NCBI GenBank assembly: GCA_965198065.1
Contig: CBDAON010000004.1
Coordinates: 2,464,001 to 2,528,000, forward strand
DNA length: 64,000 bases
Source: Longimicrobiales bacterium
GTDB lineage: Bacteria > Gemmatimonadota > Gemmatimonadetes > Longimicrobiales > Gaopeijiaceae
Direction: 5' to 3'
The notes below the pieces were generated by a model. That model worked only from the letters and a program-made list of their open reading frames with translations, was not told where the DNA came from and ran no database searches. This document shows positions 2,608-9,600 of this stretch, piece by piece; positions within the stretch are counted from its first letter, which is position 1, and every line of letters starts with the position of its first letter. Both the position numbers and the translations under genes were made by a program.

Positions 2608-3793
2608 TCACCCGGGAAGCGCCGTATTGATCGTGAGCCCCATGACGGTCCCCGCCTCCGCGATACGATCCCCCAGGTCCTGGAGGAGGTAGACGGCCTC
2701 CAGCACGGAGGGACGGGAGGCCGGGTCCACGATCGCGCGATCGAACGGCACGGGAATCCGCTCGATCGCGTCCGCGGCGCCGCTCGCGAGCGTATGCATC
2801 TCGGCCGATAGCTCGGGGTCCGCGCGCTCGATCAGCGCCAGCATCCCCGGACCCTCGATCACTGTTCCTTCGGTCCGCAGGTACCGTCCGTACAGCACGT
2901 TCCGGATCCCGCTCCAGTTCGCGAGGATGTCCCGGTGTGTGTTGTCGGAGAAGCAGGAGTGCTCGTCTTCCTGGTCCTGGTTGTCGTACGCAGTGAACAT
3001 TCGCTCACCCGCGAGTTCCGATTTGGAGAGGACTCCGATCCCCACGAGCATTCTGCGGACAGCCTCGCCCGACTCGAGCGCGGAGAGGGAAGCCCGATAG
3101 TTGTTGGCCTCCCCGGGCGCCCATTCGGCGACCAGCCCCTCCAGCTGCTCCACCAGGAGCGCGCTCACGACCGACAGATACCGGGCCCGCCGCTCCGCGT
3201 TCGGCGCCTCGCCCGCCACGTAGTCCGTGTGACTCCGCTCGCCGGGTCCGCTTGGGCTCAGGTCCTGCCCCCAGAGGAGGAACTCGATCGCGTGAAAGCC
3301 CGTGCTGATGTTCTTCGGCTCCCGCTTCGTTCAGCGAGGTCAGGAGCTCCCGGTCGACGACGGGATACGCTTCCGGCTGGTTTATGATTCCGCTCTCCGG
3401 CGCGCCCCGGACGTAATCCACGTACCCCTCGTCCAGGGGCCACGCGTTCAGGAGCGTCTCAGGGCCACCCACCCGATCGATGGGTTCCCCGTAGAAGCGG
3501 AAGCCTCGGTTTGTCCGTAAGGCTCCCGGGCCGCGAGCCAGGCGGCACGAGCGCTCCGGAGCGTCGCTTCCGTGGGTGAGGCCACCAGGGCCTGAATCGC
3601 GTTGTCCAGGGCCTCCGCGGCCCGAAACGAGTCCTCGTAGCTCGCATGGGCGATGGACGAGTAGGTCTCGATCACGGCCACGCGGAGCGACTCGAGCGCG
3701 GCCGAGTCGTCGTCGCACCCGCCGAGCGGGAACGTCAGGACGCACCCCGATGCCACACCAAACGGAGATTCTGAGACTGAGAATCGTTCTCAC
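2608..3793 (-). pseudogene. Imelysin/IrpA-like iron-regulated lipoprotein, frameshifted in this sequence
   Basis: Family motifs are spread over different frames: AWLAAREPYGQTE | FRFYGEPID..LNAWPLDEGYVDYV | STGFHAIEFLLWGQDL..EDEHSCFSDNTHRD. Single-base losses near 3502 and 3312, and probably a shift near 3750. May be intact in vivo. Confidence 0.8.
3778..3792. promoter_or_regulatory. Putative Fur box (7-1-7 inverted repeat) over the start of the imelysin operon
   Basis: TGAGAAT-C-GTTCTCA, close to TGATAATNATTATCA; AT-rich island in GC-rich DNA at the 5' end of iron-uptake genes. Confidence 0.7.
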
Positions 3794-3811
3794 ATCCGCC
3801 ACGATTGGGTT

Positions 3812-3860: not shown

Positions 3861-5213
3861 TTAGGGTGCCTCGGCGACCAGAAGCTCCCGGAGCTCATCC
3901 GGGTTAGGCCCGAGGCGGACCGTAGCCTCCTCGGCCGCGCGCCAGAGCGGGGAGCCGGCGTCCCAGTCACCGCGTTCGCTCCAGTCGGGCCGTTCGTCGG
4001 GGCTCTGTCCCGTGGCGCGCTGAACCGTGTCCGGAAACTTCGCGGGATCCGCGGTGGATGAGGAGGAGGCCGGGGCCCGGTCCCCCTTCGGTGCGGGCGG
4101 CCTCGAGACCCAGGTATCCCACGGCCGTGTGGGGATCCATCAGATAGCCGCGCTCACGGAGCACGCGGTCCATCGCCGCGAGCACGGCTGCGTCCTCGTG
4201 TCGGGTGGCGAGGATACGAGCGCGAAGGGCGGAGACATCCTGTCCGTAGACGACGAGAAGGCGCTCCAGGTTACTCGGGCGGGCCACGTCCATGGCGCTC
4301 GACACAGTCTGGACGGAGGGCTCGTCGGTGAGCGCTCCGCTCTGGTAGAAGCGCTTCATGGCGGCGTTCACGTTGCTCGCGGCCACGAACGTACCGAACG
4401 GGACGCCCATCTCGGCGGCCAGCACCCCCGCCGTCAGGTTTCCGAGGTTCCCCGACGGAACGCACTGACCGTCACGCCCTCTCGCGCGTCTCTGGGGAGC
4501 GAGCTCCATCCGTAGACGTAGTAGAAAGCCTGGGGAACGAGCCGCCCCACGTTCACCGAGTTCGCTGACGTCAGTGTTGCCTCGATTCCGAGACAGGGGC
4601 GGGCCAGAATGTCCTTTACCATCCGCTGACAGTCGTCGAAGGTCCCGTCGATCTCCACCGGGATCACCCCTGCATCGGGCTCGCCGTCCCAGGTGGCCGG
4701 CTCCTGGATCTGGCGCCGCTGCACTTCGCTCAGGCGGTCGAGGACGACGACCCGAACGCCCGGGAGCCTGTGTACGGCGTGAGCGACGGCCCCTCCCGTG
4801 TCGCCCGACGTGGCAACGAGAATGAGGATCGGACCCTCGCTGGGAGAGCGAAGCTCGGAGAGCAGGCGAGCCAGAAAGCGGGCCCCGAAGTCCTTGAACG
4901 ATCCCGTCGGTCCGTGGAAGAGCTCGAGGATCCACGTGGCCGGATCCAGCTGGACGACAGGGAGGGGGAAGTCGAAGGCGCTCTCCGATATCCTCCGGAT
5001 CACGTCGTCCGACAACGCCGAACCGAACGAACGGAGCGCCAGGTGCTCAGCCAGCCTGGGGAAAGGCCACCCGACGATCTCCTCGAGTTCCCGCGGAGCC
5101 AGCCGGGGCAGGTCCGTAGGCTGGTAGAGGGCACCGTTCGGAGCCGGGTCGTCCAACACCGCGCGCCGGAGCCTGACCTCGGTGAAGGGCGGGCGCGTGG
5201 ACACCAACTTCAC
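3861..5213 (-). pseudogene. thrC: Threonine synthase, two frameshifts in this sequence
   Basis: PLP-lysine motif ELFHGPTGSFKDFG, ATSGDTG, SANSVNVGRL, then VPSGNLGN, DPHTAVG and STADPAKF in other frames (shifts near 4462 and 4059); GTGA overlap with the thrB stop. Confidence 0.88.
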
Positions 5214-6175
5214 GCGGCTTCCTCTCCTCCCGACCCTTCCACTCGTGCTCCCCGAGGAGAGACGGGTGACAGATGGACAGACGCCCGGAGCCCGGTCGTG
5301 GCGGCGAAGGCACTCTCCATCGCGGTCGCGACGGCTTCGGCGCTCTCGGAGCCGCGGCACAGGGAGAGCATGGCGGGCCCCGCCCCCGAGATCCCGCAGG
5401 CGAGAGCTCCCGCCTCGAGCGCCGCCGTCCGGACCGCTTCGAACCCCGGGATTAGGTGTGCGCGGCGGGGCTCCGCCACCCCGTCCACGAGCGACTCGCG
5501 GAGGAGCTCCCAGTCGCCCTCGTGCAGGGCGTGCACGAAGGCGGCAGTCCTTCCCCACTGGCCCACGGCCTCGGCGAGAGAAACGGTGTTCCCGAGCGCC
5601 TTCCGCGCCGCGCGGGTGCTCACCCGGATCTCGGGGTGGAGGAGCGCCACGTGCAGCCCGTCCGGGATCGGGAGTCGAACCACGGGTCGGGAGGACGAGG
5701 GTCCCACAAGCACGAGGCCGCCGTAGAGGGCCGGGGCCACGTTATCCAGGTGGGGGCCGCCGGAGACCGCGGCTTCGCCCTCGGTCGAGCACCGGAGGAG
5801 AAACTCGAGCGACGCCCCGGTCCCAAGGAGCGCGTCCGCCGCGACGACGCCCGCGACTGCGCTGGCCGCGCTCCCGCCCATCCCGCCCGAGAGGGGGAGC
5901 CCCTTCACGATCGAGACCTCAATCCCGTCGCTCTCCCGTCCGGTGGCCTTGAGGAGCGCTCGGATGGCCACCGTGGCGGAGTTCCTCCGAGGGTCCTTCG
6001 GGATGCGCCCTCCGTCCCCGGAGATGCCCGTGATCCGGAGGCCCGGCCGGTCGCTCGACCGGGCCGTGACCCGGTCTCCTGGGGCCTCGAGCGCCAGCCC
6101 GAAGATATCGAAGCCGCAGATCACGTTCCCTACCGTGGCCGGAGCGAACGCCGTCTGGACCGCGTCAGGACTCAT
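5210..6175 (-). CDS. thrB: Homoserine kinase
   Basis: APATVGNVICGFD, GHMP motif KGLPLSGGMGGSAAS, HLDNVAP, ISGAGP. Confidence 0.95.
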   Translation of the reverse strand: MSPDAVQTAFAPATVGNVICGFDIFGLALEAPGDRVTARSSDRPGLRITGISGDGGRIPKDPRRNSATVAIRALLKATGRESDGIEVSIVKGLPLSGGMGGSAASAVAGVVAADALLGTGASLEFLLRCSTEGEAAVSGGPHLDNVAPALYGGLVLVGPSSSRPVVRLPIPDGLHVALLHPEIRVSTRAARKALGNTVSLAEAVGQWGRTAAFVHALHEGDWELLRESLVDGVAEPRRAHLIPGFEAVRTAALEAGALACGISGAGPAMLSLCRGSESAEAVATAMESAFAATTGLRASVHLSPVSPRGARVEGSGGEEAA

Positions 6176-8681
6176 CGAACGGCTTCCGGAGCCCGTGGGT
6201 TACCCGCTCCGCCGCGAACACCACGTCCGTCATGAGACCGGCCGCGGTGACCTTCGCACCGGCGCCCGGCCCCTGGATAAGCATGGGGTGCGTCGTGTAC
6301 CGGAGCGAACGGATCTCGAGCACGTTTTCGGTGCCGCGTATGCGAGCCGCTGGCTGGTCCAGCGGGACCTCGACCATCCTCACCTCGGCCCCGGACTCGT
6401 CCACCCGTGCCACCGTGGCGAGCCGACAGCCCTTCACGGCGGCTTCCTGGCTCTTCTGGGCGAACTCGTCGTCCAGCTCCGGCAGGAGGTCCATGAACGC
6501 CTCCACGGACGGCGCCTCGAAGAGCCGTAGCGGGAGGATCGGGTCCACACGCACGTCACCGGGATCGATCTCGAAGCCGGCCGTGCGGCCGAGGATGACG
6601 ATCTTACGGAGAACGTCCGTCAGCCCCAAGTCGTCCCTCGGATCGGGCTCGGAGATCCCCCGCTCCTTGGCTTCCCGGACGGCCTCACTGAACGGCTTTC
6701 CGCGATTCACCTCGTCGAAGAGGAACGTGAGCGTTCCGGAGAGCACGCCCGACATCTCCGTGATCCTGTCGCCGCTCCGCCTCAGCTCCGCCACCGTCCG
6801 GACGATCGGGAGACCCGCTCCCACGGTGGTCTCGTGGTGGATGCCCCGGCCTCCCTGCGCGGCTCGCAGGAGCTCCTTGTATTCCTGGGACGAACGGGAG
6901 AAAGCGATCTTGTTGGCCGTGACGACCGCGGCGCCGAGCTTGAGGAAATGGGCGTAACGCCCGGCCACCTCTGCGCTCGCGGTACAATCGACGACCACGA
7001 GGGGGTCGCCTGTCACGATGTCGTCCACGAGCGTCGCGGGGCTTTGCTTCCCCCCGTCCAGGAGCTCCCGCCAGCGGGACGGGTCCAGCCCCTCCAGGTC
7101 GGCGATCGCCCGGGAGCTGTTCGCGATGCCCACCAGCACGGGTCGGATCGAATGAGGCGCCAGCGCGTCCGCGGCGTGCTCGCCGATCTGCGCGAGGAGC
7201 GCTCCACCCACGCTCCCGACGCCCAGGACCGCGATCCGCACCGGGTAGAGCTCGCCAGGAGGGGCGAAGAACGCGCGATGGACCGCGCGGAGAGCAGGCC
7301 CTTCCTGCCTGGCGGCCACGACCCAGGAGATGTTCCGCTCGGAGGAGCCCTGGGCCACGCCGTCCACGTTCACCTTCGCGGCACCCAGCGTTGAGAATAG
7401 GCGCCCGGCAATCCCCGGGGTGTCCCGCATGCCCTCTCCGACGATCGCGAGGACGGATCGATCCTCCTCCATCACGGGATCGCGGAGCAGCCCGGCCTCC
7501 CTTTCGCGCCGGAATTCCGCCTCGATGGCGGTGACTGCGCGACCCATCCGGTTCCTGGGCACCGCGAAGGACACGGAGTGCGCGCTCGAGTCCTGCGTGA
7601 AGAGGAGCGAGTCCACGTCCGCTGCTCGGAGGGCGCGAAAGAGCCGCTCGCACGTTTCGGTAGTTCCGAGGGACTCGACCCCCTCCAGGCGGATGAGCAC
7701 GACGTCGCGGATGGCCGACATCCCACGGACCGGGTGATAGGGATCCCGCTCCTGCCGTTCCATGACGAGGGTCCCCGGCAGCGTGGGATCGATCGTGCTA
7801 CGGATCCGCAGGGGAATCCCCGCCTTCCGGGCCGGCTCCACGGCCGGCGCGCAGATGACCTCGGCTCCGAAGTGCGCGAGCTCCAGGAGCTCCTCGTATC
7901 CGATCTCCCGGATCGGCCGCGCGTCGGGCACGGCCCTTGGGTCGGCGGTGAGGACGCCGTCCACGTCAGTCCAGATCTCCACCCGCTCCGCGCGGAGGGC
8001 CGCCCCGACGAGGGTGGCTGTGTAATCTGAGGCCCCCCGCCCGAGCGTCGTGGTCTCTCCCCCAGCCGTCGCTCCGATGAATCCAGTGACCACCGGAACG
8101 CCCGAGCTTCCCGGGAGATCAGCCCGGATCCGCTCGTGCGAGAGCTTCGAGTCCACCCGCGCCGACCCGAAGCGATCGTCTGTGGCCACGAGTCGCCGGG
8201 CGTCCACGTCCCGGGCCGGGGTCCCCTGGGCACGCAGGCATGCGGCGACCAGCATGGAGGAGAGGAGCTCCCCGTAGGCCAACAGGCGGTCCCGGGTGCG
8301 GGGGCTGCACTCGCCCAGGAGCTCGGCCCCGCGTGCTAGCCTCCGGATGTCCTCGAAGGCTTCGGAAAGGCGGGCCTCGAGCGCCGCACGCTCCTCGGGC
8401 GCGGCCACGCCGGCCAACACCTCCCGGTGCCGGTCCTCGAGCTCCCGAACGCGGTCCTCGTAGGCGGGAGAGCCCCCACCGGCCAGGTCCGCGATCGCGA
8501 CGAGCACGTCCGTCGTCCCCCCCAACGCCGACACGACGACCACGGGGTTCGACTCCCGACGTGCGCGCGCGACGAGCCCGGTGATCGACCGGATCCGGTC
8601 GGGGTCGCTGAGGGAGCTACCTCCAAACTTGAGGACCCGCGTTGCGGGCGTGACCGCTTGATTCACGATTGGCTCATCCAT
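6165..8681 (-). CDS. thrA: Bifunctional aspartokinase/homoserine dehydrogenase I
   Basis: VLKFGGSS, TTLGRGASDYTA, IWTDVDG, ACT domains (QGSSERNIS), HSDH motifs GVGSVG, TANK, ETTVGAGLP, GPGAG. ATG at 8681 chosen as start. Confidence 0.95.
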   Translation of the reverse strand: MDEPIVNQAVTPATRVLKFGGSSLSDPDRIRSITGLVARARRESNPVVVVSALGGTTDVLVAIADLAGGGSPAYEDRVRELEDRHREVLAGVAAPEERAALEARLSEAFEDIRRLARGAELLGECSPRTRDRLLAYGELLSSMLVAACLRAQGTPARDVDARRLVATDDRFGSARVDSKLSHERIRADLPGSSGVPVVTGFIGATAGGETTTLGRGASDYTATLVGAALRAERVEIWTDVDGVLTADPRAVPDARPIREIGYEELLELAHFGAEVICAPAVEPARKAGIPLRIRSTIDPTLPGTLVMERQERDPYHPVRGMSAIRDVVLIRLEGVESLGTTETCERLFRALRAADVDSLLFTQDSSAHSVSFAVPRNRMGRAVTAIEAEFRREREAGLLRDPVMEEDRSVLAIVGEGMRDTPGIAGRLFSTLGAAKVNVDGVAQGSSERNISWVVAARQEGPALRAVHRAFFAPPGELYPVRIAVLGVGSVGGALLAQIGEHAADALAPHSIRPVLVGIANSSRAIADLEGLDPSRWRELLDGGKQSPATLVDDIVTGDPLVVVDCTASAEVAGRYAHFLKLGAAVVTANKIAFSRSSQEYKELLRAAQGGRGIHHETTVGAGLPIVRTVAELRRSGDRITEMSGVLSGTLTFLFDEVNRGKPFSEAVREAKERGISEPDPRDDLGLTDVLRKIVILGRTAGFEIDPGDVRVDPILPLRLFEAPSVEAFMDLLPELDDEFAQKSQEAAVKGCRLATVARVDESGAEVRMVEVPLDQPAARIRGTENVLEIRSLRYTTHPMLIQGPGAGAKVTAAGLMTDVVFAAERVTHGLRKPFDES

Positions 8682-8685
8682 GAGC

Positions 8686-8719
8686 AAAAAATCACCCCGA
8701 CCTGTTCAGGTCCGGGGCG
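8686..8719 (-). terminator. Attenuator terminator hairpin upstream of thrA
   Basis: Minus strand CGCCCC(G)GACCTG-AA-CAGGTCGGGGTG followed by ATTTTTT; its 3' arm GGGGTGAT is also the only SD-like sequence for thrA. Confidence 0.8.
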
Positions 8720-8755
8720 GGGCGTCGACCTATGTTCTGAGCAGCGAATCTCAGA

Positions 8756-8857
8756 TCACGGTCGTGCGCCTTCCCGGCCCCCCCCCGTCGTCGCGGAGGT
8801 GGTGAGCCGGCATGTCGTGCCCGTGGCGCCGAAAATCTCGCTGTCCCGGAATTGCAT
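8756..8857 (-). CDS. thrL: thr operon leader peptide (33 aa, 7 Thr)
   Basis: MQFRDSEIFGATGTTCRLTTSATTGGGREGARP immediately upstream of the terminator and thrA; TTGACA at 8890-8895 upstream; alternative ATG at 8866. Confidence 0.75.
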   Translation of the reverse strand: MQFRDSEIFGATGTTCRLTTSATTGGGREGARP

Positions 8858-8971
8858 GACTGACATGTATCGCCCCCCGGCCCCACGGGTGTCAAGGGCA
8901 GGAGGCTGCCCCGGGAGTGGGTCCGAAGCGACGCCCATCCGCCCGGCGGCGAGGCCCACCCTCGTCCCGGC

Positions 8972-9000
8972 TTGAGTCAGCCGCCCGGGATGCGTAAAGT
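8972..9000 (+). promoter_or_regulatory. Sigma70-like promoter
   Basis: TTGAGT-17 nt-TAAAGT, 40 nt before the ATG at 9040. Confidence 0.55.
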
Positions 9001-9039
9001 TGTTCAGATGCAGCGGATCCCCGAGGCACCCCGGAGCCC

Positions 9040-9600
9040 ATGACCGAACCTCCGCGCACCCCCCCCGAGCCTGAGTCGCCGCGGTCTAGCGGCGAGGACG
9101 GCTCTCCTCGCGGCGAGGCGGCCCCCTCGCGGCGTCCCGAGGACGTGGCTTCGCTGGTCCGCACTATCCAGAAGGACGCGGCGGAGCGCGAGCAGGTCCG
9201 ACGTACCCCCTCCCCCCGCGGGCGACAGTCCCGGTGGTGGTACTTTGCGCTCGTGTTCACGTTGGGCGCGAACCTGTACGTATGGATCGGGCAGCCGGAC
9301 TGGGTGGTCGGTGCGCCGACTGGGCCCCAGACCGCGGCCGAGGAAGAGGGCATCCTCCGCTTCCGGATGTACGTGCAGGGCCAACGGATCGAAGCGTACT
9401 GGCGTGAGAACGGGGCGTTCCCCGAGCGGTTGGAGGACACCGGGGAGCCGCTCGAGGGGATGCGGTACCAGCGCACGGGCCCGGACTCTTGGGAGCTCCT
9501 GGGGGAGATGGGCCAAGCCGGCTTGATCCTGCGCTCCTCCATGTCCATGGGCGAGTTCATCGGGAATTATCAGGAACCGTTGGGAGTGGATGGAGCCTGA
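9040..9600 (+). CDS. Hypothetical single-TM membrane protein with pseudopilin-like C-terminal segment
   Basis: Disordered N-terminus, TM WWYFALVFTLGANLYVWIG, then RIEAYWRENGAFPERLEDTG, reminiscent of GspG-type helices; SD GGAG. Confidence 0.65.
   Translation: MTEPPRTPPEPESPRSSGEDGSPRGEAAPSRRPEDVASLVRTIQKDAAEREQVRRTPSPRGRQSRWWYFALVFTLGANLYVWIGQPDWVVGAPTGPQTAAEEEGILRFRMYVQGQRIEAYWRENGAFPERLEDTGEPLEGMRYQRTGPDSWELLGEMGQAGLILRSSMSMGEFIGNYQEPLGVDGA

Follow-up and report, generated by a model that had tools for sequence, protein, structure and literature searches.

Background

The closest described counterparts of the region analysed here are the thrL leaders of Enterobacteria and Vibrio, with which it shares a short threonine-rich ORF, alternative pairing (predicted here), and a U-tailed terminator before thrA-thrB-thrC. 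In the available text of PMC12925634, thrL of Escherichia coli has eight threonine and four isoleucine codons, and that of Vibrio natriegens has five of each. The trpL, hisL, leuL, and ilvL leaders are likewise built with regulatory codons in region 1, a 1:2 hairpin, and mutually exclusive 2:3 and 3:4 pairings, an arrangement that is predicted here as well. This four-region scheme is set out in PMC1183508, and ribosome-mediated attenuator motifs have been placed in the gamma-proteobacteria with few transfers (PMC3766115); the host group studied here is not among the groups named in the available text of either source. A further set of leader peptides is known from Actinobacteria, where thrL (before thrS), leuL, ilvL, and trpL of Streptomyces lividans and the polycysteine ORFs of mycobacteria are described as leaderless (PMC8079986 and 10.1101/834739, respectively, in the available text of each). 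The absence of a 5' UTR before the ORF, which is inferred for our locus, is thus a shared trait, and one of the S. lividans leaders is threonine dependent (PMC8079986). According to the available text, however, the Streptomyces threonine leader has two threonine codons, precedes thrS, and lacks a U-tract, whereas the present one has seven, precedes a biosynthetic operon, and has a full terminator.

Literature searches that combined Gemmatimonad names with attenuation, read at the level of main texts, showed no description among the papers listed, and Gemmatimonadota are unmentioned in the main text of PMC2965389 and PMC4833913.

The window, that is the whole stretch of DNA analysed, comprises 64,000 nucleotides of a Longimicrobiales bacterium (Gemmatimonadota, Gaopeijiaceae; assembly GCA_965198065.1, contig CBDAON010000004.1, positions 2,464,001 to 2,528,000), and all window coordinates below are positions within it. 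A first-pass annotation had proposed a threonine leader-peptide attenuator outside the Gammaproteobacteria, and conservation in all 14 closest loci, an in-frame bias of threonine codons, and a predicted switch support that proposal. The region is likely a classical threonine-sensing, ribosome-mediated transcription attenuator for thrABC, and its leader is probably translated leaderless. It differs from thrL in having 33 codons with interspersed threonines and one isoleucine outside the threonine stretch, in its likely leaderless translation, and in a long central hairpin between the stop codon and the terminator.

Methods

The family was searched in 314 genomes, and the DNA before the aspartokinase matches was read. 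The closest group was defined as 14 loci with thrA at least 65% identical, from genera g1, g91, g62, and g82 and with the window's own genome included. The switch was modelled by RNA folding in which the ribosome acted as a mask and the 3' arm of the terminator was not yet made.

The leader ORF and its conservation

The leader ORF, of 33 amino acids plus stop, lies at 8756..8857 on the minus strand (AUG at 8857, stop at 8758-8756). Its regulatory stretch, codons 12-24 (8786..8824, minus), has threonine at codons 12, 14, 15, 19, 20, 23, and 24, which bears out on the minus-strand sequence the earlier description of a 33-residue ORF with seven threonines in 13 codons. The accompanying statement that the control region has no isoleucine holds for codons 12-24, the sole isoleucine codon of the leader being codon 8; the leader also holds two serine codons. 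Seven threonines in 13 codons occurred in 6 of 11,374 short AUG ORFs of 15-45 aa genome-wide, the leader included. Compared with NCBIfam, the leader ORF had no match.

Each of the 14 closest loci has the −35 hexamer, the leader AUG, an ORF of 30-33 codons, and the same terminator, so that the upstream ORF, which the first-pass annotation had suggested looking for before thrA in relatives, is kept in all of them. Across codons 2-25 of these leaders, threonine codons make up 75 of 336 (22%) in frame vs 16 and 7 off frame, the genome trinucleotide rate for threonine codons being 5.2%, and threonine is the only residue strongly enriched in the leaders of this clade. Only three or four threonines are left in 6 of the 14. 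Among strains, synonymous changes were seen at codons 19 (Thr) and 2 (Gln); in one other strain, Thr12 is replaced by methionine, and one low-depth contig of another strain has an additional G within the leader's G-run.

The automatic screen missed 4 of the 14 leaders, which were recovered by eye, so weak leaders elsewhere are possibly undercounted. By hand, a Thr-rich ORF with a terminator was counted at 26 of the roughly 71 bifunctional thrA-type loci of the family, and one further such leader was found in a sister family (G040); no threonine leader was found at the 18 thrA loci read in two further families of this class. A covariance model built from the 14 loci and run on 100 loci gave matches before thrA in G003 (53.6 bits), G024 (36.7 bits), and G007 (21.3 bits) and weak matches in G146, G121, G079, and G018; against the window's own genome it gave one strong match only. 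In G003, model R1 has a second match (21 bits; L006:922-1071, minus), located upstream of the thr leader but on the other strand.

At 13 thrA loci (12 in genus g6 and one in g66) the leader is absent, and in g6 the terminator is gone too. These genes begin about 35 nt after a −35-like hexamer (the g6 loci among L141-L153, L298, and L299). In a quick tree the sampled g6 and g66 thrA nest within the leader-bearing clade, with g6 inside g82, and the g6 gene was possibly acquired by transfer.

Other short ORFs were seen in wider surroundings. Genus g10 (L007, L171, L172, and L180) has a short conserved ORF with about four threonines, whose end is separated from the aspartokinase motif downstream by 85-112 nt. 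A terminator was not found near this ORF, which is possibly a remnant or a different switch. In G556 (L422), a terminator of the type found in G132 and G561 precedes thrA, and the threonine-coding part is apparently absent. Thr-rich short ORFs also precede aspartokinases in six Acidobacteriota records, with terminators, and in Ignavibacteria and Bacteroidota (all records: L054, L055, L117, L120, L127, L130, L065, and L098). A metagenome scan with the terminator pattern returned 119 stretches; 80 loci were examined, none with a thrA, thrB, or thrC match. The pattern is that of a generic terminator.

Comparison with Rfam, suggested in the first-pass annotation, yielded no match to Thr_leader (RF00506) in 8400-9400 at E up to 10. 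The RF00506 covariance model had no match in the own genome (E up to 1) and none over the cut-off of 55 bits in 151 family genomes, and the leader region matches no Rfam family, riboswitch, or T-box. On sequence, the leader is thus no member of RF00506, yet it is predicted to work like thrL.

Putative promoter and translation start of the leader

A −35 hexamer with a perfect sigma-70 consensus (8890..8895, minus), present in all 14 closest loci, marks the putative leader promoter; its invariance in alignment A1 is by construction, because the hexamer anchored that alignment. From its first base to the leader AUG the distance is 37-38 nt in all 14. A −10-like element of uncertain register (8865..8871, minus) is conserved in A1. 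The consensus promoter scan did not call a promoter at the leader. Pairs of −35 and −10 elements in this genome are spaced mostly by 17-18 nt (40 and 38 sites vs 1-10 at other spacings), and the departure of the leader's −10 from this pattern counts against the attenuator reading. The genomic sites show a weak excess of AUG at offsets 36-39.

The AUG at 8857 is invariant in the 14 loci, the alignment of the leaders starting at AUG. An in-frame AUG at 8866 would lengthen the leader to 36 aa, but it is disfavoured as a start; it is absent in 2 of the 14 loci and is probably not transcribed, because the −10-like element overlaps it. Three observations suggest that the ORF is likely translated from a leaderless or near-leaderless transcript: the −35 hexamer stands at a constant distance from the AUG, no purine-rich site precedes this AUG, and two loci have lost the upstream one.

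Terminator and predicted switch

Folding and terminator search placed an intrinsic terminator at 8686..8719 (minus), formed by a hairpin at 8719-8693 and six U at 8691-8686. It stands between the leader stop and thrA, as in classical attenuators, and its consensus stem of nine pairs has 99% of cells paired across the 14 loci. Within the ORF, folding predicts a protector (region 1:2) hairpin (8774..8810, minus), whose outer helix has 89% of cells paired in the 14 loci; two of its pairs changed on both sides, which is not above shuffles. Region 2, the end of the G-run (8767..8779, minus), is the predicted 5' strand of the antiterminator and pairs with 8716-8709 and 8724-8721; this pairing has 86.6% of cells paired in the alignment, with zero compensatory changes. 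A central hairpin spanning the stop codon (8721..8770, minus) is compatible in folding with both terminator and antiterminator, and its inner part differs between relatives.

The alternative pairing proposed in the first-pass annotation can form, but the helix given there, 8770-8757 with 8734-8721, is predicted alongside the terminator in the structure of lowest energy. Only the extension of this helix by the end of the G-run (8779-8773 with 8716-8709) would exclude the terminator. Alternatively, this G-rich strand can pair backwards with 8810-8795.

In the switch model, all 14 loci have the terminator's four C paired upstream with a probability of 0.67-1.00 when the ribosome is stalled at codon 20 vs 0.02-0.45 when it has reached the stop codon, and the drop in predicted sequestration falls just past the last threonine codons, at about codon 23-25 here. 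Observed sequestration exceeded the shuffled mean in all 14 loci; it was matched by at most 3 of 60 shuffles in only 5 of them, and by 17 of 60 in this genome. With the 3' arm made, folding favours the terminator at most ribosome positions in this genome, at −55.4 kcal/mol vs −48.8 kcal/mol for the antiterminator state as computed on a shorter RNA. Since the terminator is more stable at equilibrium, it is the sequence of folding events that would have to permit read-through. The covariation tests added no real evidence to plain conservation. One found two pairs with double changes, and 407 of 500 shuffles scored equally high, a weak signal because the terminator is nearly invariant; consensus folding of alignment A1 yielded the terminator only. 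Among strains, one base change abolishes the bulge of the antiterminator. In an RNA library, a contig at 8598-8833 with a depth of 2.3 spans the terminator, which speaks weakly for read-through, DNA not being excluded as its source; RNA run X2, covering only part of thrA at a depth of 2, was uninformative.

Taken as a mechanism, transcription would begin with the AUG at 8857 or slightly upstream of it, and the leader would be translated leaderless. When charged tRNA-Thr is scarce, a ribosome slowed on codons 12-24 would leave 8779-8767 to pair with 8724-8709, the terminator would fail to nucleate, and the polymerase is predicted to read into thrA. When threonine is plentiful, the ribosome would cover 8779-8767, the hairpin at 8719-8693 would form, and transcription would end in the U-tract before thrA.

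The start of thrA

The first-pass annotation had also proposed that the terminator's 3' arm, as the only SD-like element for thrA, may control its translation. An SD-like stretch is indeed present in that arm (8691..8698, minus), and thrA has two in-frame candidate starts read from the sequence, AUG at 8681 and GUG at 8666 (8664..8681, minus). The element is not the only one, a purine-rich element at 8679-8673 lying 6 nt before the GUG (by eye). Nor was the control itself borne out across relatives, most of which have long spacers, and only 2 of 14 loci retain the arm's SD-like ending; translational control is not supported, on sequence comparison, as a feature of the family.

A local version of the idea is unlikely, namely that one hairpin both terminates transcription and, in RNA that has been read through, masks the ribosome site of thrA. 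Such a role would have arisen recently as a side effect of the short spacer here, and it would add to the attenuator, not replace it. The distance from the terminator to the first aspartokinase motif is 64 nt here and 62 nt in G003, vs 134-189 nt in 16 of 17 relatives, a spacer shorter by about 75-120 nt that brings the G-rich arm within 13 nt of AUG 8681, counted from its four G. Such a distance is long for SD-to-start spacing, however, and the GUG at 8666 has its own upstream element, as described above. The relatives' thrA genes start about 70-90 nt beyond the arm at in-frame GUG codons with purine-rich elements of their own (four by eye), and G003, the other short-spacer genome, also has a purine-rich element outside the hairpin.

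The thrABC operon

Downstream lie thrA, a bifunctional aspartate kinase/homoserine dehydrogenase I (6165..8681, minus; NF006959, 791 bits, cut-off 726), beside which no second homoserine dehydrogenase turned up in the own genome; thrB, a homoserine kinase (5210..6175, minus; NF002288 and TIGR00191 above cut-off); and thrC, a threonine synthase (4180..5213, minus, matched part only), which is split between two frames by a break near 4463. The thrC frameshift positions in the window are 4463 and 4059, and the long-form ilvA is frameshifted near G000:C4 1569506 (L433). The thrC break is common to the assembly and run X5 and absent from run X8 of another strain; the ilvA break is shared by runs X5 and X3, and runs X8 and X6 are without it. 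Threonine and IlvA function may thus be gone from this strain, or else the runs may come from the same source as the assembly. With thrC and ilvA broken in both the assembly and the matching run, it is possible that the strain no longer makes use of the switch.

Another gene nearby looks broken as well: at 2608-3802 (minus) two overlapping ORFs in different frames look like one frameshift-broken gene, presumably imelysin-like, which adjoins a di-haem oxidoreductase-like ORF at 1219-2604.

Which amino acids may be sensed

The first-pass annotation had suggested sensing of threonine only. This fits the present genome and the clade with citramalate synthase, but sister and outgroup leaders carry two to five isoleucine codons. 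Matches to citramalate synthase (TIGR00977) exceeded the cut-off in 12 of 30 genomes (the own genome, G095, all nine of g82, and G003), and in none of five genomes of a further search; the gene is distinct from leuA, which is also present in the six citramalate-bearing relatives tested. For the long-form ilvA (TIGR01124), 8 of 33 genomes passed the cut-off; G007 and the own genome have the gene split into halves, and it was not found in G095, g82, or G001. The own genome has both citramalate synthase and the frameshifted ilvA.

Read by eye, leaders with two to five isoleucines were present in 8 of 9 relatives with long ilvA and without citramalate synthase; among ten relatives with citramalate synthase and without long ilvA, one had two and the rest had none or one. 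Within the closest group, isoleucine makes up 10 of 264 codons (3.8%) across the 11 genomes with citramalate synthase, the trinucleotide background being 2.2%, vs 13 of 72 in the three others. A quick tree grouped the ten citramalate relatives as one clade, with g62 (five isoleucines each) as sister and G024 and G007 (two each) outside, so the association amounts to about one evolutionary event. Exceptions were G040 and G055 (no isoleucine; ilvC not found in G055) and G090, G121, and G166 (one each), all isoleucine-poor without citramalate synthase, as well as G003, which has citramalate synthase and two isoleucines, and G001, which has three isoleucines and neither enzyme found; the genomes being incomplete, not found does not equal absent. 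A weaker element of our reading is that isoleucine codons would have been nearly lost because the clade can make isoleucine via citramalate synthase and not from threonine.

Three other ideas were rejected. In the clade, isoleucine codons are not lacking for want of isoleucine synthesis, as ilvC is over cut-off in 26 of 30 genomes and ilvD in 29 of 30 (neither ilvC nor leuA turned up in the own genome, whose completeness is 87.6%). Nor is the own genome without ilvA, its long form being present in two frames. An isoleucine leader peptide before citramalate synthase was not seen in the upstream regions read at 11 of 12 loci.

A partial T-box match does precede citramalate synthase (G000:C4:2359415-2359478, minus; 23.5 bits, cut-off 93); it covers the antiterminator part only and has a U-tailed terminator (L287, L297, and L434). 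It is the only such match in the own genome, and none was found in five relatives. A short stem with a possible isoleucine specifier nearby is a guess by eye.

Sensing might also be broader, with threonine joined by isoleucine, serine, methionine, or overall ribosome speed, so that "threonine only" would be an overstatement. The fold model antiterminates for a ribosome slowed at any codon up to about 23, the leader has its isoleucine at codon 8 and its two serines, the serine count equals that of threonine in the leaders of some relatives, and outgroup leaders contain isoleucine and methionine. We nevertheless regard this account as quite improbable for the present leader, given that threonine alone is strongly enriched clade-wide and that isoleucine in the citramalate leaders is near background.

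Codon content and the downstream operon

Leaders of other operons in the relatives carry other codons. In G138, G202, G257, and G018 (L425, L426, L196, and L424, respectively), a leader with three or four lysine codons and a terminator stands before a gene in which aspartokinase and an ArgE/DapE-type deacylase are fused. Downstream of it, G138 and G202 both have dapB and dapA, and G202 also has asd. By eye, the Thr/Ile/Met leaders of G132 and G561 have the same 3' end as the lysine leaders of G138, G202, and G257. These are candidate lysine leader-peptide attenuators. The aspartokinase-deacylase fusion is itself unusual. Upstream of leuA in nine relatives (L435-L444), several of the regions read have Leu-rich ORFs and a conserved U-tailed terminator before leuA-ilvC, and these form a candidate leucine attenuator family; a search of the own genome did not reveal the leuA-ilvC operon. 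That codon content appears to follow the operon supports codon sensing generally, independent of the folding model.

An account without amino-acid sensing, in which a fixed leaky terminator or a protein- or ligand-bound RNA bears the threonine codons as a side effect of structure, draws on the several threonine codons within the conserved protector hairpin and on the weak covariation and shuffle tests, but it is very unlikely in view of the frame bias (75 vs 16 and 7), the conservation of the AUG and frame through the threonine stretch, the change of codon identity with the downstream operon, and the absence of an Rfam riboswitch or T-box at the leader region.

Discussion

The threonine-sensing attenuator proposed for the window may belong to a longer series. 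Tentatively, and with somewhat less than even confidence, we suggest that one kind of leader switch in the family has been retuned as the aspartate pathway was rewired, with threonine plus isoleucine (and methionine) codons alongside the IlvA route, threonine alone alongside citramalate synthase, and lysine before the diaminopimelate operon; the window's leader would be the threonine-only state, translated leaderless.

There is a precedent for leader codons tracking the role of the downstream aspartokinase. Vitreschak et al. (2004) reportedly described a thrA attenuator of Pasteurellales with added methionine codons, and the two main attenuator surveys are those of Lopatovskaya (2010) and Vitreschak (2004). 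The Pasteurellales case adds a sensed amino acid, whereas here isoleucine was apparently lost with citramalate synthase, and a lysine version exists.

The mechanism itself is textbook, and the extension to a phylum would alone be modest. If the reading is true, leader-peptide attenuation would be extended to the Gemmatimonadota through a sequence family that Rfam misses. The family would also offer a natural series in which the sensed codons shift with the wiring of the pathway (IlvA or citramalate, threonine or lysine operon), and the speed at which sensors track metabolism would become testable. Leader codons would then give a hint of the biosynthetic route used by an uncultured organism.
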